This document shows positions 13,582 to 23,980 of a stretch of 64,000 nt of DNA, in pieces (position 1 is the first letter of the stretch; each line of letters opens with the position of its first letter). Both the position numbers and the translations under genes were made by a program. Origin of the DNA: SAR202 cluster bacterium (lineage in GTDB: Bacteria; Chloroflexota; Dehalococcoidia; Lucifugimonadales; VXLM01); assembly GCA_022448725.1 (NCBI GenBank), contig JAKUTR010000012.1, forward strand, positions 4,066-68,065, given 5' to 3'. Below the pieces are notes generated by a model, which ran no database searches, was not told the DNA's origin, and saw only the letters and a program-made list of their open reading frames with translations.

Positions 13582-13875
13582 ATGAAACTTCTAAACATCA
13601 GGGGTATCTTTACCATATTGACGGTAGCCGCTGCGGTCTATGCTGTAAGATCGGGCAGACCGGCAGGACGAATCCTCAACATCCCTTACGACTTTCGGTT
13701 TCCTACAACTGACCGTATTCAGGAACGTTTCTGGAACGAAAAGGATGATCGTATCTTTACTCCGCTTGTCTTCGGCGCAGGGTGGGGATTGAATCTTTAT
13801 CAACTGTTACGTAAATTTCAATCTGATAACAACGTCGAGGAAGAGGAGATCCCCGCAGCAGACTTTGAATTGTAG
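13582..13875 (+). CDS. Small membrane protein, DUF5808-like
   Basis: N-terminal TM segment; PYDFRFP and FWNEKDDRIFTPLVFGAGWGLNL. Confidence 0.7.
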   Translation: MKLLNIRGIFTILTVAAAVYAVRSGRPAGRILNIPYDFRFPTTDRIQERFWNEKDDRIFTPLVFGAGWGLNLYQLLRKFQSDNNVEEEEIPAADFEL

Positions 13876-15098: not shown

Positions 15099-16256
15099 AT
15101 GCTTGACTACTACAATATCTCTGCTCTGTTAACTCCTGAAGAACGTCAGATCCAAGAGTCCGTCCGACGATTCTTAGATACTGACGCTGTACCAGAGGTC
15201 AGCTCTTGGTGGGAGCGGGGGGAATTCCCAATGCATTTGCTCCCAGGGCTATCTAAACTTGGCATTATCGGCGCAAATCTCCCTAAGAATTACGGTGGAG
15301 CGAGTGTAAGCAACATTGCATATGGCCTCATAATGTATGAGCTTGAGAGGGTTGATTCAGGACTCCGCAGTTTTGTCAGTGTCCAGAGTTCACTATGTAT
15401 GGAACCGATCATGACCTACGGTTCCGAAGAACAAAAGCGAAAATTCTTACCCCAAATTGCAGCCGGCCAAGTTATCGGATGTTTCGGCCTAACCGAACAC
15501 TCTGGCGGCTCCGATCCCAACGCAATGCAAACACGCGCACAAAAAGACGGCGATCAATATGTACTCAACGGTACGAAGATGTGGATAAGCCTAGGTTCAA
15601 TCGCCGACTTCGCAATCATCTGGGCGAAGGACCAGAATGATGCTGTCCGTGGCTTCATAGTCCCTACAGATACACAAGGCTTCGTAGCGACGACCGTACC
15701 GCGAACTATGAGCCTGAGGATTGCAGGCGCCAGCGAACTGATCCTAGAAGATGTGCGCATACCCGCGGATCACATGCTTCCCGCTGCATCAACCCTGTCT
15801 GCTCCCCTTTCGTGCCTTACCCATGCGCGTTATGGAATTGCATGGGGTGCGATGGGAGCTCTCGAATCTGTATATTCGGAAGCTTTAGCATTCGCTAAAT
15901 CACGAACAACCTTCGGACAGCCGATCGCCTCCCGCCAGTTGGTACAGGAAAAGCTTTCTACTATGCTATCGGATCATACAAGTGGGCTCCTACGGGCACT
16001 GCGTCTCGGCCAACTAAAGGACACTGATCAGATTACCTACAGCCAAGTTTCTCTTGCAAAGCGTGAAAATGTGCGAGGAGCATTACGAGGAGCAAGACTG
16101 GGTCGAGAACTTTTGGGAGGGAGCGGCATTACTCTGGACCACAGCGTAATCAGACACATGCTAAACCTCGAAACGGTGGACACATACGAGGGGACCCACG
16201 ATATTCATACTCTGATCATCGGTCGTGATATCACAGGGATTCAAGCGCTCTCATGA
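15099..16256 (+). CDS. Acyl-CoA dehydrogenase, glutaryl-CoA dehydrogenase-like
   Basis: ELERVDSGLRS, GCFGLTEHSGGSD, LNGTKMWI, TYEGTHDIH. Confidence 0.92.
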   Translation: MLDYYNISALLTPEERQIQESVRRFLDTDAVPEVSSWWERGEFPMHLLPGLSKLGIIGANLPKNYGGASVSNIAYGLIMYELERVDSGLRSFVSVQSSLCMEPIMTYGSEEQKRKFLPQIAAGQVIGCFGLTEHSGGSDPNAMQTRAQKDGDQYVLNGTKMWISLGSIADFAIIWAKDQNDAVRGFIVPTDTQGFVATTVPRTMSLRIAGASELILEDVRIPADHMLPAASTLSAPLSCLTHARYGIAWGAMGALESVYSEALAFAKSRTTFGQPIASRQLVQEKLSTMLSDHTSGLLRALRLGQLKDTDQITYSQVSLAKRENVRGALRGARLGRELLGGSGITLDHSVIRHMLNLETVDTYEGTHDIHTLIIGRDITGIQALS

Positions 16257-16281
16257 CTTTACGCGTGCTAAACTTCCGGTA

Positions 16282-18339
16282 ATGGTTCCTCCAGATAATA
16301 TCTTTGGCCTAATCCCCACCTGGGTTGGTGTCTACGTACTCGCCACCTTAATGTTCGGGCTCGCACTGTACATCCTGTATCGCCGAGTCTACACACTAGT
16401 GATGCTAGGACAACGAGAGAACCGCTTCGATCAACCACTCAGACGACTTATTGGGGCTATCCCGTTGACTTTGGGACAACGTAAAGTAATGCAAAGTGTA
16501 TCCATTCATGACCGAGCTGGGATCGGCCACTTTGTAATCTTCTGGGGATTTATATCGTTTGCCATAAGCTATGTGCTTTTTATATTTGCGGATTCAATTT
16601 CACCTAGCTTCTCCGCTGCTTTGCTAGGAGAAACCGGATTGAGAGTTTTTACCATCTATCTTGACCTCCTCTCCGGAGTGCTGCTGATCGTGTTGCTATG
16701 GGCAGGACTACGGCGGTGGGTCTTTACCCCTCATCGCCTGAGTTTTGACCTGACACAAAAAAACGAATCCGCGATTATCCTACTATTGATAGCTGCCTTG
16801 ATGAGTTTGTCACTACTAAGCGAGGCATTTCTAGAAGCATCCCTCTCTTGCCCATCAGAGATGGGGCAATGTAATAATCATGCGGTACCTATTGGATCAG
16901 CCATTGGCAAATTCCTAACTACCATAGGAATTAAGGGTTCTATCGCTGACGCCCTTTACCAGGTCTCATGGTGGACTCACCTGATAGTAATTCTTGGCTT
17001 TGCTATCTACATTCCGGTGTCCAAACATATGCACCTTGTCGGTGCTCCTCTCAGCTTTATTTTCCGAAAGTTAGAACCAATGGGTACGCTTCCAACCCCG
17101 ACAGATTTAGAGACTGCGGATGTCTTCGGTGCTGCAAATGTCCAGGACTTTACGTGGAAAGAGCTTCTTGATGGCTACGCTTGCGCGGTCTGTGGCCGCT
17201 GTACTGACGCTTGCCCAGCTAATATTTCTGAAAAATTTCTGTCCCCCATGCATATTGCGGAGAACCTAAAAGATAATCTACTTAGCGTGGGACCCGCCAT
17301 TGCACAAGGAAAAGATCTAGTAGACGACAAACCCCTCGTCGGTTCATACATTAGCGAAGAATCACTTTGGGATTGTTTGACGTGTGGCGCTTGTGAGTAC
17401 GAATGTCCTGTAGGTGTTGAGCATATCAATATGATTGTCGATATGCGCCGCAACCTTGTAATGGAGAAAGCGTCGATGCCAGAGACTGCAGCTAATGTAC
17501 TGCTGAGTATGGAACAACGTGGACATCCTTGGCGTGGTACAACCTACAATCGCACCGATTGGGCTGAAGGGCTGGACATACCAACACTAGCCGAAAATCC
17601 AAACGCAGAGATGCTCTTCTGGGTGGGCTGCACTGGTGCACTTGAAAAGCGAAGTCAGAGCGTACCCCGCGCGATGGCTTCAGTACTAAAACGAGCAGGT
17701 GTTGAATTCGCGATTTTAGGGGACGAGGAGGGGTGCTCAGGCGACCCTGCACGCCGCATGGGTAACGAGTATCTTTACCAAACAATGGCACAGCAGAATA
17801 TTGAGACCTTTAGACGCTACAACGTGAAGAAAATAGTGACAACATGCCCGCATTGCTTCAACACTATTAAAAACGAATATCCCCACCTTGGAGGCGAATA
17901 TGAGGTCCTCCACTACAGTGAGATCGTAAATGAGTTGATCAAGAGTGGCCGTATCAAACCTGCTGCTACCATTCAAGCCACTGTCGCCTATCACGATTCC
18001 TGTTACTTGGGCCGACACAACGATATCTACGATGCCCCGCGCCAGATTGCAGAGTCCATACCAGGCGTCAAATTAGTAGAAATGGAAAAGTGCCGAGGCC
18101 AAGGTTTTTGCTGCGGAGCAGGTGGCGGGCACATGTGGATCGAAGAGAGCCGGGGCCGTCGAGTCAACCATATGCGAACAGAGCAGTTTTTGGAAACAGG
18201 AGCTGACACGGTCGGCGTCTCATGCCCTTTCTGTCTTCAAATGTTCGAAGAAGGGATTGGCTCGGTTCAAACATCGGGTAATGCGAAAGCAAAAGACTTA
18301 CTCGAGCTTCTAGATGAAAGCCTAACCAATGGAAATTGA
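16282..18339 (+). CDS. FadF-like membrane Fe-S oxidoreductase (TM cytochrome b-like + two 4Fe-4S + two CCG domains)
   Basis: Several TM helices; CAVCGRCTDACP and CLTCGACEYECP; YHDSCYLGR, CCGAGGG. The ATG at 16282 avoids overlap with the upstream gene. Confidence 0.9.
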   Translation: MVPPDNIFGLIPTWVGVYVLATLMFGLALYILYRRVYTLVMLGQRENRFDQPLRRLIGAIPLTLGQRKVMQSVSIHDRAGIGHFVIFWGFISFAISYVLFIFADSISPSFSAALLGETGLRVFTIYLDLLSGVLLIVLLWAGLRRWVFTPHRLSFDLTQKNESAIILLLIAALMSLSLLSEAFLEASLSCPSEMGQCNNHAVPIGSAIGKFLTTIGIKGSIADALYQVSWWTHLIVILGFAIYIPVSKHMHLVGAPLSFIFRKLEPMGTLPTPTDLETADVFGAANVQDFTWKELLDGYACAVCGRCTDACPANISEKFLSPMHIAENLKDNLLSVGPAIAQGKDLVDDKPLVGSYISEESLWDCLTCGACEYECPVGVEHINMIVDMRRNLVMEKASMPETAANVLLSMEQRGHPWRGTTYNRTDWAEGLDIPTLAENPNAEMLFWVGCTGALEKRSQSVPRAMASVLKRAGVEFAILGDEEGCSGDPARRMGNEYLYQTMAQQNIETFRRYNVKKIVTTCPHCFNTIKNEYPHLGGEYEVLHYSEIVNELIKSGRIKPAATIQATVAYHDSCYLGRHNDIYDAPRQIAESIPGVKLVEMEKCRGQGFCCGAGGGHMWIEESRGRRVNHMRTEQFLETGADTVGVSCPFCLQMFEEGIGSVQTSGNAKAKDLLELLDESLTNGN

Positions 18340-18369: not shown

Positions 18370-19350
18370 TCAAGTTGGAAATTTACGGATTGCTTCACCA
18401 ACTTGTTCAATAGCATCGAAATGATTATCACGGCAAGACTCTAGGGTTGGTTGCCACGGAGCCATCATGAACCCCAAAAGATAATCTGGGTTCAAATGTT
18501 CAACACAATAATCAACTAGAGTGTTGAAATTGTTTGGTGACGTTATGTTGCTACCGCAAGGAATTTGATCGAATCCTAACGCAGACATTTCATGGAATCC
18601 TTTTGTTTTATATTCGTTCCTCAAAAACCTATTTTTATCTCCGTAGACCCAGGCAGTAAGAAGCATTGATTTCGGGAATTTCCTGTATATTGCTTCAGCG
18701 CCACCAGGGTTACGTTCATCAAAAAACACCCATGGCCGGGATCCGGCTTTCTCAACCTGACCGATAAAGAAATACAGATCGTGCCAATACATATTTGGCT
18801 CCCGTGTAAATTGGTGCTTGTAATATTTTTCCCCAGCTTCTATTTCTGCAGAATATTCTTCATCCATTCCCAAGTGAAAAAACCTGGGTTTTTCGAAAAT
18901 ATCACTTACCTCTGCTATCAGATCACTGCAAACCGCGTAATATGTTTCCGAAGAAACCATTTTTTGGTATTTACCGAGCCATGCGTCATGCCAAGTTGAA
19001 AAGTTCATCTTGGGAATCGGTTCCAATCCTAATTCTCTCAACTTATTCAATTCACCTTTAAGTTGTTCAACTGACCACGCATTTTCGACTGCGATTTCTG
19101 GATGGCTTTTATAGCGAACGCCATCACCTAAATCTAATACCAACATATTCATTCCGACTTCTGCCATCTTTTTGATGATAGCGTTCCAAAGAGTCTCGTC
19201 AAATCTAAGAAAAGGCTTAAAATGGCTATGCACAGGGATTTCCGGATACTGTCCTTCAGGGGGATCCCAATCAAGCCACATATTACAGCTCAGATGAATT
19301 AGAGAAGCCCATATTTTGTCGTCTTTGTTATTGTTTGCTTGAGATATAAT
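18370..19350 (-). CDS. GH20-like TIM-barrel glycoside hydrolase-like protein, AT-rich
   Basis: FFHLGMDEE motif and GDGVRYKSHPE. The ORF track starts at ATG 19281, but the frame extends to ATT 19350 behind an AGGAG SD; start uncertain. Confidence 0.7.
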   Translation of the reverse strand: MISQANNNKDDKIWASLIHLSCNMWLDWDPPEGQYPEIPVHSHFKPFLRFDETLWNAIIKKMAEVGMNMLVLDLGDGVRYKSHPEIAVENAWSVEQLKGELNKLRELGLEPIPKMNFSTWHDAWLGKYQKMVSSETYYAVCSDLIAEVSDIFEKPRFFHLGMDEEYSAEIEAGEKYYKHQFTREPNMYWHDLYFFIGQVEKAGSRPWVFFDERNPGGAEAIYRKFPKSMLLTAWVYGDKNRFLRNEYKTKGFHEMSALGFDQIPCGSNITSPNNFNTLVDYCVEHLNPDYLLGFMMAPWQPTLESCRDNHFDAIEQVGEAIRKFPT

Positions 19351-19596: not shown

Positions 19597-20466
19597 TCAC
19601 TTCAGCCCGAGAAGGCTAAGAGAGTCTCGATGAATGATGGCTTCAAGCTCATCGGTAGGAACTTCAGGCATATGATACTGCCGCGCAAACTCATTGAAGT
19701 TCTGAAGGAATTCAATTGTCTCTGCTGGCGTGGTAACTGGGAAATCACTGGCGAAAAGGAATTTATGCAGGACGCCCCACTCGTAAGCTAGACGGAAAGC
19801 ATTATATGCTTGTAAAGGACGTATCAAGGCTCCTGATACGTCAGCGTAAACATGTGGGTGCTTACGGATAACTGCTATACAATCAACGTGCCAAGGATGC
19901 GCGATATGAGCCATCACGACTCTCAACTCGGGGAACGCCATAGCAATTTCGTCCATAACCAATGGATGAGCGTAGCGAAGTGGGGATTGAGGGTATGGAG
20001 AAGTTCCCTGATGAAAAACAATTGGTAGACCTAGCGCTTGGGCTCGATCGTAAACTTTGAATGCGTTCTCGCTCTTCGGATCAAAATCTTGGTAGTTAGG
20101 TCCTAGTTTTATACCTCTTAGACCCAGTTGATCAACACAACGCTCAATTTCTTGGAGCACATCTGCTTCATCCGGATGGACGGACATAAAGCCTATAATC
20201 TTATCGGGAGCGCGGGAGACTACTTTAGCGGCGGTATCATTAACGTCGCCTTTCCAGGGGAAGACAGGGGAATCTTCATCCGTGGGACGTCTACGGATAC
20301 CAAAAACGAAAGCGGTATCAACTGTTTCCATACCAGCAAGATAATCATCTACATTCGTAGAAAGGCGTACTCTCTCACCCGGCCTCATCTGGGTATCTTC
20401 CTTAATGTCATCACTAGGAATTGTGTCCATGTGGGTAGGTATATGAGTGTGCACATCTACTATCAT
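19597..20466 (-). CDS. Amidohydrolase family protein (Amidohydro_2)
   Basis: IVDVHTH, GIKLGP, VFHQG, VMAHIAHP, FASDFP. Confidence 0.9.
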   Translation of the reverse strand: MIVDVHTHIPTHMDTIPSDDIKEDTQMRPGERVRLSTNVDDYLAGMETVDTAFVFGIRRRPTDEDSPVFPWKGDVNDTAAKVVSRAPDKIIGFMSVHPDEADVLQEIERCVDQLGLRGIKLGPNYQDFDPKSENAFKVYDRAQALGLPIVFHQGTSPYPQSPLRYAHPLVMDEIAMAFPELRVVMAHIAHPWHVDCIAVIRKHPHVYADVSGALIRPLQAYNAFRLAYEWGVLHKFLFASDFPVTTPAETIEFLQNFNEFARQYHMPEVPTDELEAIIHRDSLSLLGLK

Positions 20467-20585: not shown

Positions 20586-21338
20586 CTAAGCCGTTTCTAG
20601 GATCTTGTGGGTTTTTTCACGTAGTTTCTCAGTCTGGGTGAACAGTGAGCGAATCTTTGCGTCAAACTCTGCCACACATGCTAGTGGCGTTTTTTGGGTC
20701 GTATCGATCGTGATCCGACGAGAGATCGATGATGCCTCAACTTCCTGTTGAAACCTTGTAAGAACGGTCTCGACATCACCATCCTTCACAAGCGCATTTG
20801 GATGTGGATCATCTTTCATACGTTGTCTGATTACCTCGGCTGAAGCCGTAACATGCACCAGAACAATCGCGGGAGAAAGTTGCTGCAAATGAGACTCCCA
20901 AATACGTGCAAGATGTTGTCGGTCTCCATAGATCCCCTCGTGCCCGTAGTCAAGGTAGAGAGGTGCGTAGACCGCCTCATCGAAATGTAGGCCCACCATG
21001 AAATGATCTGCCGATTCGAAGAAGCCTTCCCTCAGGTGATACTCAATGTGGTACCTCTGAAACATCTCTTTCACCTTAACGTCCATCGACAACATTTCCT
21101 GTTGTCCTTCAGGATCTAGCCCTGTCATCGTAGGATCGGGACCAAGTCCTACCGACCAATTTGCGAACATCTCCTCCTGGGTCTTCTTCTGGATATCAGG
21201 GTGATTTAAATGTGGCCATTTGAAATGATCATGGATGCCTGGTTGAGGATTACCTAACGTCTTACGCGTCCATTCAACGACTCCATTAAGTAGAGTAGTT
21301 GTGCCGGCATATTCACATCCAACAAACAGTAAGTACAC
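20586..21338 (-). CDS. NMP/thymidylate-kinase-fold protein with degenerate P-loop (paralog C)
   Basis: GCEYAGTTTL, HDHF, QRYHIEYH, HFDEAVYAP, ASAEVIRQRM, IDTT. Confidence 0.75.
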   Translation of the reverse strand: MYLLFVGCEYAGTTTLLNGVVEWTRKTLGNPQPGIHDHFKWPHLNHPDIQKKTQEEMFANWSVGLGPDPTMTGLDPEGQQEMLSMDVKVKEMFQRYHIEYHLREGFFESADHFMVGLHFDEAVYAPLYLDYGHEGIYGDRQHLARIWESHLQQLSPAIVLVHVTASAEVIRQRMKDDPHPNALVKDGDVETVLTRFQQEVEASSISRRITIDTTQKTPLACVAEFDAKIRSLFTQTEKLREKTHKILETA

Positions 21339-21346
21339 TACGCGTA

Positions 21347-22117
21347 CTATCGCTCTGTTGCCGCAGCTATTTTCTTCTGCCGCTGGAACATTATCTTCTC
21401 GCGATCAGTATCGATAAGATGCTCTTCGATCTTTTCAGCGAATTCGGCAAGACTTTCTTCGGGCGTAGCATTCGTGGTATCTATCACGAATTTATGACGC
21501 AGCCAAGACACATCATACTGATGCTGGAACTCTGCCAGCACTCCCTCAACATCTCCTTCTTGCACAAGACCAAAGGGATGCGGGTTAGATTTTAAACGTT
21601 GTTTGATAGCCTCTGGCGATGCGGTAACCAATATCAGCACCGAGTCTGGTGCCTTATGCATAATGTCTGCTTCAACCCGCCTTGCCATCCAATCTCGATC
21701 AGCATACTCTCCGGGACCACCGTAGCCATAATATCGCGGTGCGTACACAGCCTCATTGATATGGAACCCAATGTTATTGTGGTGAGCATCCGCGTAGAAA
21801 GTTTCAGCGACGTGATACTCCATATGGTAGCGCTGGAACGCCTCTTGCTGTTTGAAACTAAGAGCCAAGAAGGCCTCATTCTCCTCATCAGTATGACCTG
21901 TTAGAGATGGATCAATTCCCTTGCCATCAAGGAATTCGTCTACCATTCCCTCCCTTGTTTTACCTGCTGGCGGCTCACCGGGATGCGAGACATGAGGAAT
22001 CTGCCAATGATCGTGGAAACCAAATTCGTCGCCAAGATTTTCCTTCGCCCACCGACTGATTAAATATCCAAGGGTCGAAGTACCAGAGTATTCGCATCCA
22101 ACCATAATTAGTCGCAT
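21347..22117 (-). CDS. NMP/thymidylate-kinase-fold protein with degenerate P-loop (paralog B)
   Basis: GCEYSGTSTL, HDHW, QRYHMEYH, HINEAVYAP, ASPEAIKQRL, IDTT; GGAGG SD. Confidence 0.75.
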   Translation of the reverse strand: MRLIMVGCEYSGTSTLGYLISRWAKENLGDEFGFHDHWQIPHVSHPGEPPAGKTREGMVDEFLDGKGIDPSLTGHTDEENEAFLALSFKQQEAFQRYHMEYHVAETFYADAHHNNIGFHINEAVYAPRYYGYGGPGEYADRDWMARRVEADIMHKAPDSVLILVTASPEAIKQRLKSNPHPFGLVQEGDVEGVLAEFQHQYDVSWLRHKFVIDTTNATPEESLAEFAEKIEEHLIDTDREKIMFQRQKKIAAATER

Positions 22118-22238
22118 TTAATACCTCCAGGCTAGCATTCGCGTAAGGGTAAAGCCTAACCGTGATGTTGTATAGAGGCAGATACCCTAATCCTACTGCT
22201 AGCTATGAAAAGGGATCCAACCATTGGTGGCCCTAGGT

Positions 22239-22913
22239 TTACTTGGCGCCCTGCAAAACAATACGCATGCGATCCGTATCAGTCAGATGTGGTTCGATCT
22301 GCTGAACAAACTCTGCCATAGTTTCCTCAATGGTTCCTACACTCGTGTCCAGCGTAATCTTGTGACGAAGAAGAGAGTAACTGATCTCTTCCTCAAAACG
22401 GGCCTGAACCATCTCAATATCGCTCTCTTCTAGAACTCCATACGGGTGTGGATTTTCTATCATTCTTTGACGTATCACCTCAGGAGATGCCTTGACATGG
22501 CACAAGACTATGTCCGGCACAGCATCCAGAAGCTTACGGTCCATCGCCTGAACGTATCCCCGTTTACGGGAGTAATTAAAGTAAATATCACCATAGATCG
22601 TATCCTCCCAATGAAGGCCAATAACAACCTTGTCATCCATTCCTGGAATCGCTGCAACATGATAGGCAATGTTGTGTCTTTGAAGGGCCTCCATCTGGCG
22701 AGGACTAAGCTTCATGTAAGCTTCGAGCTCATCAGGTGTAGCCTCTACAGGTGTAGTCGAATACTCAGGGTCATGACCAAAGGTATAAGGAATTTTAAAG
22801 TGGTCGTGGACAAGGTTGACGTGCCCCCCTATCACTTCATGGACCCATTCCTGTATACGGAACCCTAATGTTGTAGTACCTGAATACTCACATCCAAGGA
22901 GAATAACTCGCAT
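22239..22913 (-). CDS. NMP/thymidylate-kinase-fold protein with degenerate P-loop (paralog A)
   Basis: GCEYSGTTTL, HDHF, QRHNIAYH, HWEDTIYG, ASPEVIRQRM, LDTS. Confidence 0.75.
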   Translation of the reverse strand: MRVILLGCEYSGTTTLGFRIQEWVHEVIGGHVNLVHDHFKIPYTFGHDPEYSTTPVEATPDELEAYMKLSPRQMEALQRHNIAYHVAAIPGMDDKVVIGLHWEDTIYGDIYFNYSRKRGYVQAMDRKLLDAVPDIVLCHVKASPEVIRQRMIENPHPYGVLEESDIEMVQARFEEEISYSLLRHKITLDTSVGTIEETMAEFVQQIEPHLTDTDRMRIVLQGAK

Positions 22914-22951: not shown

Positions 22952-23824
22952 CTACTCGTCGCGAACAAGGTTATACATCCAGGCTCTCATCTCATCTGCC
23001 ATGTCACCCCGATTAAGAGCTGCAAAAATCGATGCTTGCAGCATCCCTAAAGGCTCTCCAATGTCAAAATGAGTGCCTGGGAATCTGTAGGCATAGGCTT
23101 GATGTTTGGAGAGTAATGCAGATATAGCATCTGTGATCTGGATCTCTCCACCGACACCCAGTTTAGTCTGTTCAATCTGATCGAAGATACCCGCAGGTAA
23201 AATATAGCGTCCTACTATAGCAAGGTTAGACGGAGCATCTTCAAGAGGGGGTTTCTCCACCATCTCATCAATAACATAGCGCCGTCCATCTGAAGCGCTC
23301 ACGCTAACGATCCCTTTACTTGAAACCAGGCTATTAGCAACCTCTTCTACAGCGACAACAATCCCATTCGTCTCTGTATAGATGTCGATCATAGAACTAA
23401 TCGTCGGCGACTCATGCCAGATCAGGTCATCAGGAAAAAGGACGGCAAACGGTTCTTCGCCAACAAGTGGACGGGCCTGAAGAATTGCGTGACCGATACC
23501 TCTACGTTCATGCTGATATACATAGCTTATCCGGCTGGTTTCAGCAATTTCTATCATTCGGTTAAGTAAATCGAGCTTGCCTTGTTGCTGTAGGGTATCC
23601 TCAAGCTCCGTTAACCGATCAAAGTAAGTATTGATTGCCTCTTGCCCTTCTGAAATCACGAATACAAGATGGTCGATGCCAGATTCCAAAGCTTCGTCAA
23701 CAGCGAATTGTAGACCGGGAGTGTCTAGTACAGGTAAAAGCATTTTGGGCACAGCCCGCGTCACCGGGAGAAAACGAGTGCCGAATCCGGCTACAGGAAT
23801 TACAGCCTTACGGAGTTCAGGCAT
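22952..23824 (-). CDS. galU: UTP--glucose-1-phosphate uridylyltransferase
   Basis: KAVIPVAGFGTRFLPVT..PK, VEKP, GRY, GEIQITDA; GGAGG SD before ATG 23824. Confidence 0.92.
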   Translation of the reverse strand: MPELRKAVIPVAGFGTRFLPVTRAVPKMLLPVLDTPGLQFAVDEALESGIDHLVFVISEGQEAINTYFDRLTELEDTLQQQGKLDLLNRMIEIAETSRISYVYQHERRGIGHAILQARPLVGEEPFAVLFPDDLIWHESPTISSMIDIYTETNGIVVAVEEVANSLVSSKGIVSVSASDGRRYVIDEMVEKPPLEDAPSNLAIVGRYILPAGIFDQIEQTKLGVGGEIQITDAISALLSKHQAYAYRFPGTHFDIGEPLGMLQASIFAALNRGDMADEMRAWMYNLVRDE

Positions 23825-23980
23825 GTGTCCTCCATTAGTGGTAATAGTGGCCAAAAGTTGAATAACTACTGTACAGGATTATAGTTAGCCTACCCAGATC
23901 GATTCAATCACCAGACGGCAGTCCTATCCATCAGCGTGGGACGTTTGATAGGATTCCGAGATAGCGAGTTCGAGGTAACA

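Follow-up and report, generated by a model that had tools for sequence, protein, structure and literature searches.

Three tandem genes on the minus strand of a SAR202 cluster bacterium contig encode proteins that resemble nucleotide kinases and lack the lysine of the Walker A motif. This lysine is a supposedly fixed P-loop signature, and its loss is routinely taken to indicate a dead enzyme. The locus raises the question of what became of the lysine, and whether proteins that lost it can still act as kinases. The window analyzed here is the whole stretch of 64,000 nucleotides that contains the locus. Residues are numbered as in paralogue B; in A and C the numbering is shifted by +1 at the HDH motif. 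The features of the locus are as follows.

22952..23854, minus strand: galU-like nucleotidyltransferase, upstream of A (TIGR01099, 309.5 bits; cut-off 326.8)
22239..22913, minus strand: paralogue A (P0001), 224 aa; P-loop GCEYSGTTT; second-site Lys40 (HDHFK); without the insert
22794..22796, minus strand: Lys40 codon of A (family position 39, second-site lysine), from the sequence and the numbering map
21347..22117, minus strand: paralogue B (P0002), 256 aa; P-loop GCEYSGTST; Gln39 at the second site; insert present
22001..22003, minus strand: Gln39 codon of B, where Lys is usual in the T-type subfamily, from the sequence
21896..21925, minus strand: GxGxDPxxTG portion of the B insert, from the alignment
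20586..21338, minus strand: paralogue C (P0003), 250 aa; GTG start; P-loop GCEYAGTTT; second-site Lys40 (HDHFK); insert present
21219..21221, minus strand: Lys40 codon of C (family position 39, second-site lysine), from the sequence and the numbering map
21120..21149, minus strand: GxGxDPxxTG portion of the C insert, from the alignment
19597..20466, minus strand: Amidohydro_2 metal-dependent hydrolase (Pfam), downstream of C

We found that A, B, and C are intact open reading frames arranged in tandem on the same strand, with pairwise identities of 31-43% and BLASTP E values of 4e-40 to 5e-68; the gap between B and C is 8 bp. Their alignment contains every motif that the first-pass annotation had listed (GCEY[SA]GT[TS]TL, HDH[FW]xxP, QR[YH]xxxYH, G[LF]HxxxxxY, AS[PA]ExIxQR, PHP, and [IL]DT[ST]), and among the three only B and C share the GxGxDPxxTG insert, as it had described. 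The B insert is helical, spans about 25 residues, and is confined to one subclade of the family. Threonine does replace the Walker A lysine at position 13 in all three proteins, and profile alignment with thymidylate kinases sets I116-G117 of B on the DR motif, in agreement with the reported change of DR to IG or VG. AF2 models of B and C had pLDDT values of 95.5 and 97.0, respectively. In the predicted fold, that of an NMP kinase, five parallel strands form the core, the P-loop follows strand 1, and the lid is helical; fold searches of predicted models, among at most 50 listed entries, uphold the proposed NMP/thymidylate/deoxynucleoside-kinase fold.

To place the trio within its family, we aligned 278 full-length members, comprising 139 of 250 proteins that passed a coverage filter and 139 from loci. 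Some genes occur twice among the 278, and reduction to <90% identity left 199 members, a sample skewed toward relatives of B. Within the P-loop, G7 is present in all 199, C8 in 183, E9 in 196, Y10 in 190, G12 in 198, and T15 in 190. The HDH region is similarly retained (H35 in 198, D36 in 197, H37 in 197, and P41 in 196), as are residues in the middle of the protein (E92 in 189, R96 in 192, H102 in 193, Y125 in 187, and Y129 in 191) and in its C-terminal half (R141 in 186, R174 in 198, and D213 in 190). R174 lies in a predicted helix (168-177) that corresponds to the lid helix, and Asp36 lies at the end of predicted strand 2. The Cys/His motifs that the trio was said to share held up for the histidines and failed for the cysteines: there is no Cys cluster, and C8, the sole shared Cys, is replaced in 16 of the 199 members. 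None of the 199 carries Arg at 117 or 118, the place of the DR arginine, and Asp occupies position 117 in 12 of 67 K13 members and 1 of 117 T/K39 members. Two other paralogues from the genome of the window depart at single sites: one on contig C7 has Asp at the Walker B position, and one on contig C12 has DGD-like residues where HDH is expected.

The Walker A pattern GxxxxGK[ST] fails in A, B, and C, with Thr in place of Lys, and is satisfied by 67 of the 199 members. These 67 carry Lys13 and have no basic residue at position 39, which lies three residues past Asp36 in H-D-H-[FW]-x-x-P. Another 119 members carry Lys or Arg at 39 without Lys13, and 13 have a lysine or other basic residue at neither position. 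Lysine at both positions occurs in none of the 199 members, nor in any of the 278. Lys13 members have a small residue at 39, and Lys39 members have Thr13. The column pair 13-39 ranks first of 22,588 pairs (MI-APC z 13.0), with 39-121 second and 39-79 fifth, although kinship among the sequences inflates the statistics. The latter two pairs suggest that Lys39 may have acidic anchors at 121 and 79.

On a tree built without columns 13 and 39, parsimony required 9 and 10 changes at these positions and 13 jointly; on a tree from residues 75-245, it required 12 and 12 changes and 15 jointly. These switches are partly non-independent, and deep nodes are weakly supported. In addition, P0060 is a mosaic whose N-terminus is 90% K-type and whose C-terminus is 89% T-type, so some of the joint changes are segment swaps. 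P0010 is a mosaic of two family subtypes as well: in both proteins, each end resembles a different subtype at ~90%, which suggests either that paralogues have recombined or that the assemblies are chimeric. C branches within the Lys13 clade, beside a galU-linked K-type copy (local support 0.88-0.89), yet bears the B-type insert, and thus may represent either a lysine switch or a mosaic.

B presents a different case: it and 23 relatives have Thr13 and Gln39. This clade has Asn121 in 23 of its 24 members, whereas T/K39 members have Asp or Glu there (116 of 117), and Arg128 in 22 of 24, a position that is mostly Leu elsewhere. Lysine-free forms arose at least four times, in the B clade, in a T/T clade, in an A/E pair, and in a G/V sequence, and kept most other residues; whatever selection maintains thus does not require a lysine. 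At L102, L105, and L111 (genomes G012, G006, and G010), the Walker A lysine has been lost and Lys39 has not been gained; these genes are orthologues of the K13 paralogue C23:29677-30369 in the genome of the window and make up a second lysine-free lineage.

All three classes are under constraint. For the B clade, median pairwise dN/dS was 0.088 over 119 pairs of 16 sequences; the T/K39 class gave 0.128 over 75 pairs and the K13 class 0.099 over 187, all from pairs that are non-independent. For A, B, and C against their nearest relatives, synonymous sites are saturated (pS 0.8-0.9), and pN is 0.30, 0.13, and 0.37, respectively. The earlier argument against decay therefore stands: purifying selection acts throughout, with dN/dS of about 0.1 rather than near 1. 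What did not survive was the step from a missing lysine to a repurposed family, as a third of the family keeps Lys13, A and C have a mutually exclusive second-site lysine, and B alone lacks both. From these results, we conclude that A and C are probably functional kinases whose lysine has moved, not broken enzymes, and that B has neither lysine.

No existing family claims these proteins. In keeping with the undescribed system that the annotation had suspected, A, B, and C gave no Pfam match at E<=1 and reached no NCBIfam cut-off. Among the closest proteins is YorR of the Bacillus subtilis prophage SPbeta (PDB 2axp, 3kb2), at 13-18% identity; it is itself uncharacterized, has 173 aa, and keeps DR, whereas family members have 210-260 aa and lack DR. 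Thymidylate kinases (TMPK; PF02223; PDB 4s35, 2wwf) resemble the family in the acidic residue at P-loop position 3 (E9 in 196 of 199), but differ in that the family has no DR, lacks the Walker A lysine in two thirds of members, and places HDH after strand 2. PF02223 weakly matches 5 of 77 members (best E 0.0024), TIGR00041 scores P0060 at 17 bits (cut-off 83), and the genome of the window encodes a separate canonical TMPK. Deoxynucleoside kinases (dNK; PF01712; PDB 2jas) have an ER/DR-S motif, whereas the family has no arginine there; 4 of 77 members match PF01712 at E<=0.1 (best 5.7e-4), none convincingly. Matches to APS kinase, PPK2, and deoxynucleoside kinase were sought in this genome, which is 95% complete, and none was found. 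Shikimate kinase (SK; PF01202) and nicotinamide riboside kinase have a catalytic Asp at the end of strand 2 (PMC3306394, PMC1994991), to which the family Asp36 would correspond; in shikimate kinase this residue is Asp33, and Walker B is occupied by glycines (PMC3306394), a place at which the family would have G117. The shikimate kinase profile matches at 92-97%, and SKI is the most frequent weak Pfam match (32 of 77). Against the DxD and GGG of SK, the family has one Asp (H-D-H) and one Gly (G117), in an alignment whose register is not firm, and NF010553 scores B at 16.5 bits and P0060 at 32.8 (cut-off 204). Judged by these sequence features, the family appears to act like a P-loop small-molecule kinase, yet fails membership of the TMPK, dNK, shikimate kinase, PPK2, and sulfotransferase families.

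A basic residue that meets the phosphate site from a non-canonical position, as proposed here, is also found in WNK kinases, sulfotransferases, and SIMIBI deviant Walker A ATPases. WNK protein kinases, which have a different fold, and sulfotransferases use a displaced or extra catalytic lysine. In the SIMIBI ATPases, the lysine is added in trans and the canonical one is kept (10.1101/439992), whereas here both lysine states occur among paralogues of one genome and are mutually exclusive.

We propose that A, B, and C use ATP to phosphorylate small molecules bearing a hydroxyl group, and that the lysine three residues past the HDH Asp substitutes for the missing Walker A lysine; we regard this proposal as evenly poised between right and wrong. 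Asp96 of thymidylate kinase is the aspartate of its DR motif. In NRK1, Asp36 serves both to activate the hydroxyl of the acceptor and to bind Mg, and Phe39 touches the acceptor (PMC1994991); this Asp36 is the spatial equivalent of thymidylate kinase Asp96 (PMC2836551). Spacing and predicted strand position, rather than superposition, suggest that the family Asp36 corresponds to NRK1 Asp36, and covariation and spacing would put residue 39 close to the P-loop. By analogy with NRK1 and shikimate kinase, residue 39 would face the transfer site and Asp36 would stand in for the DR Asp. ATP-Mg would be seated on the P-loop; Asp36 would activate the acceptor hydroxyl, as in NRK1; Arg174 would serve as the lid arginine; Lys39 would contact the beta-gamma phosphates from the acceptor side; and Glu92, Arg96, His102, Glu/Asp122, Tyr125, and Tyr129 would line the acceptor pocket. 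The P-loop lysine binds the beta and gamma phosphates and P-loop kinases need a lid arginine, and in simulations monovalent cations can take the position of the lysine (10.1101/439992). B could be a slower variant, or be assisted by a cation or by Arg128. The paralogues would act singly, probably as homo-oligomers, in scavenging or catabolism. Several findings weigh against a kinase: the putative acceptor pocket is near-invariant across paralogues, a surprising trait if their substrates differ; known kinases are matched by profile at a modest 82-97%; the DR arginine occurs in 0 of 199 members; and lysine-free lineages are retained.

The trio is part of a larger expansion. Its three paralogues are indeed in tandem, but they are no self-contained unit, as nine further paralogues lie elsewhere in the genome (2.09 Mb), making 12 on 8 contigs with mutual identities of 29-45%; the loop reads GK in 4 of the 12 and G[TS] in 8. 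The nine are found at C19:14977-16374 and on C23, C10, C11, C7, C21, and C12; C19:14977-16374 is a second tandem family pair whose orthologues remain neighbors in same-genus genomes. All 15 same-genus genomes searched have 7-12 family matches each, and most copies from three of these genomes fall into stable orthogroups, each corresponding to a distinct paralogue of the window's genome at 52-80% identity. In other families of the order, 2 of 15 genomes have matches (6 and 14 copies), and an even sample of the phylum yielded matches in 14 of 301 genomes, with at most nine candidates scored per genome, so that copy numbers there are floors. A scan of species genomes confirmed 545 stretches as family matches; the 80 of these that were retained are from Dehalococcoidia/Chloroflexota, Poribacteria, Latescibacterota, and one Acidobacteriota. 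Representatives at the 50% level with E<=0.001 to the family number 355, and in the ESM Atlas B falls among unnamed Chloroflexota clusters. The genome of the window also has 19 Amidohydro_2 and 11 luciferase-like monooxygenase matches, which, together with the taxa of the family matches, suggest a SAR202-type lifestyle.

Family arrays sit at the galU locus in at least six other loci, where the residue 13/39 types vary: T/K with T/Q (L027), K with T/K (L038, L039), two T/K (L062), three T/K (L081), and K followed by an unrelated gene and then T/K (L098). The A orthogroup adjoins galU in same-genus genomes. The window also encodes a membrane-anchored, HdrD/GlpC-like CCG/4Fe-4S oxidoreductase (16225-18339, plus strand); a homologue flanks the array in L038, L039, L081, and L098 too, and the locus is therefore old. 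Downstream of the amidohydrolase lies a 303-aa TIM-barrel-like protein (18370-19281, minus strand) with a weak glycoside hydrolase 20 match (E 0.002) and no NCBIfam match, and between two other protein genes there is a tRNA-gene-like stretch at ~13780-13850 (region 13757-13850), judged by ORF translation. In 13 of 15 loci (L021-L035), an Amidohydro_2 orthologue (67-71% identity) is present along with the B orthologue. More widely, in a domain scan of 102 of 116 selected neighboring proteins, the neighbors are mixed: amidohydrolases, Gfo/Idh/MocA and short-chain dehydrogenases, PhyH dioxygenases, BNR-repeat proteins, a sulfatase, a PIG-L deacetylase, an enolase-family enzyme, and housekeeping genes. 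No dedicated neighbor that names a substrate was found in the family loci surveyed. Two tandem 301-aa paralogues with HTHTT motifs, presumably PHP-like, lie directly downstream of a family member at C21:9969-11942 in the window's genome. In Poribacteria (L065-L088), a K13-type member directly precedes a metallo-beta-lactamase-fold gene in 17 loci, usually beside a GH42-like gene; this most consistent neighborhood offers a possible route to a substrate. Marine metatranscriptome contigs from four runs (at most four studies) contain pieces of B in 4 of 4 and of C in 3, and one contig spans the B-C junction (20762-21418), although contigs from RNA libraries do not prove transcription or a common transcript.

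Two readings that dispense with kinase activity are kept alive because lysine-free forms persist and the pocket hardly varies among paralogues. The whole family, or at least its Thr13 members, could be non-catalytic nucleotide or metabolite sensors (pseudokinases) in which Lys13 or Lys39 merely tunes binding, an idea that we think unlikely but worth taking seriously. Recurrent lysine-free lineages under purifying selection (B clade dN/dS 0.088), the absence of the DR arginine from all members, and pocket residues near-invariant over 7-12 paralogues per genome, as if reading one ligand, all fit such a role. However, Glu9, Asp36, and the lid Arg174 are near-universal (196-198 of 199), an either/or lysine this strict suggests a single chemical role, and the neighbors are mostly enzymes with a few sensor genes; a search for longer forms also turned up no regulator domain and a single fusion, with an aldo-keto reductase on one contig, which is weak evidence. 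It is rather improbable, in our estimate, that the proteins are metal-dependent transferases or hydrolases on a kinase fold, an option raised by the annotation; here a transition metal would be held by His35, His37, and His102 with Asp36, Glu9, or Glu92, and the substrate would be something other than ATP. The proposed ligands are well conserved (H35 198, H37 197, H102 193, E92 189, and E9 196 of 199), DR is lost, and HDH lies outside the TMPK, dNK, and SK consensus lines, but the one shared Cys is replaced in 16 of 199, an intact GK[TS] loop persists in a third of members, and the P-loop glycines, Thr15, lid arginine, and terminal DT motif of nucleotide kinases are all retained.

The arrangement of the trio might instead reflect an obligate A/B/C hetero-oligomer in which lysine-free B scaffolds or regulates A or C. 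TMPK and dNK, the structural relatives, are dimers, the genes are tandem on one strand with the closely spaced B and C sharing an insert, and A and B orthologues are adjacent in genome G012 (L101) too. Although the annotation had raised a hetero-oligomer as a possibility, a fixed complex of this kind seems very unlikely: the B orthologue is the sole family member in 14 of 15 loci (L021-L035), A and B orthologues lie ~430 kb apart in genome G010, and arrays elsewhere, including those at galU, have two or three copies of varying type. Moreover, C was the best match of none of the 37 paralogues fetched from five relatives (6/7, 8/10, 9/10, 8/14, and 6/6 matches), sets that are incomplete. The suggested likeness of GT[TS]T to the sulfotransferase 5'-PSB loop, which would make the family PAPS/PAP-dependent sulfotransferases derived from a kinase, is weak. 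Sulfotransferases have an S-G-T-T loop, and a sulfatase adjoins some family members; but in sulfotransferases a basic residue (Lys or Arg) precedes S-G-T-T, whereas position 10 here is Y in 190, H in 3, W in 3, F in 2, and G in 1 of 199, and never Lys or Arg. Sulfotransferases also bind the 3'-phosphate through an Arg-x7-Ser motif in strand 4 and the next helix, and no such motif is conserved here (position 165 is K in 121, T in 38, and R in 17; position 173 is Ser in 7; n=199). GK members have the same whole architecture, and neither an APS kinase nor a Sulfotransfer_3 match was found in the 95% complete genome, so that we give this reading very little credence. Equally little attaches to a polyphosphate-dependent kinase like PPK2 (PF03976), a family marked by GxDxxGK, a DR/NR-S motif, and a basic channel for polyphosphate: profile-profile probability is <1%, the DR/NR motif is absent, and the family is acidic (median pI 5.5), whereas PPK2 holds polyphosphate by a Lys/Arg cluster (PMC8776046).

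We return to the proposed kinases with a movable lysine. The literature searched by listings contained no description of this family, although supplementary tables or subscription papers could list it as a hypothetical cluster. The SAR202 expansions reported in PMC10444878 are of enolases, dehydrogenases, flavin monooxygenases, and sulfatases, with non-phosphorylative catabolism, and the word 'kinase' appears once in its main text. This analysis contributes the family counts, the finding that the expansion spans the genome, and the lysine-free B clade, together with the caveat on mosaics. We tentatively suggest, as a possibility that we would not yet bet on, that these proteins make up a P-loop kinase family, so far undescribed, in which the catalytic lysine alternates in WNK-like fashion between the Walker A motif and the loop that follows strand 2; that lysine-free members such as B are active via a monovalent cation or Arg128; and that the 6-14 copies per genome are a paralogue expansion, hitherto overlooked, for phosphorylating dissolved organic compounds in SAR202-type Dehalococcoidia, with fewer copies in Poribacteria and Latescibacterota. 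The occurrence of lysine-13, lysine-39, and lysine-free forms in one genome provides a ready-made test of the Walker A rule. If the suggestion is true, a kinase-fold family joins the known paralogue expansions of marine Dehalococcoidia, and the identity of its substrate would indicate an unrecognized step in organic-matter processing by these bacteria.
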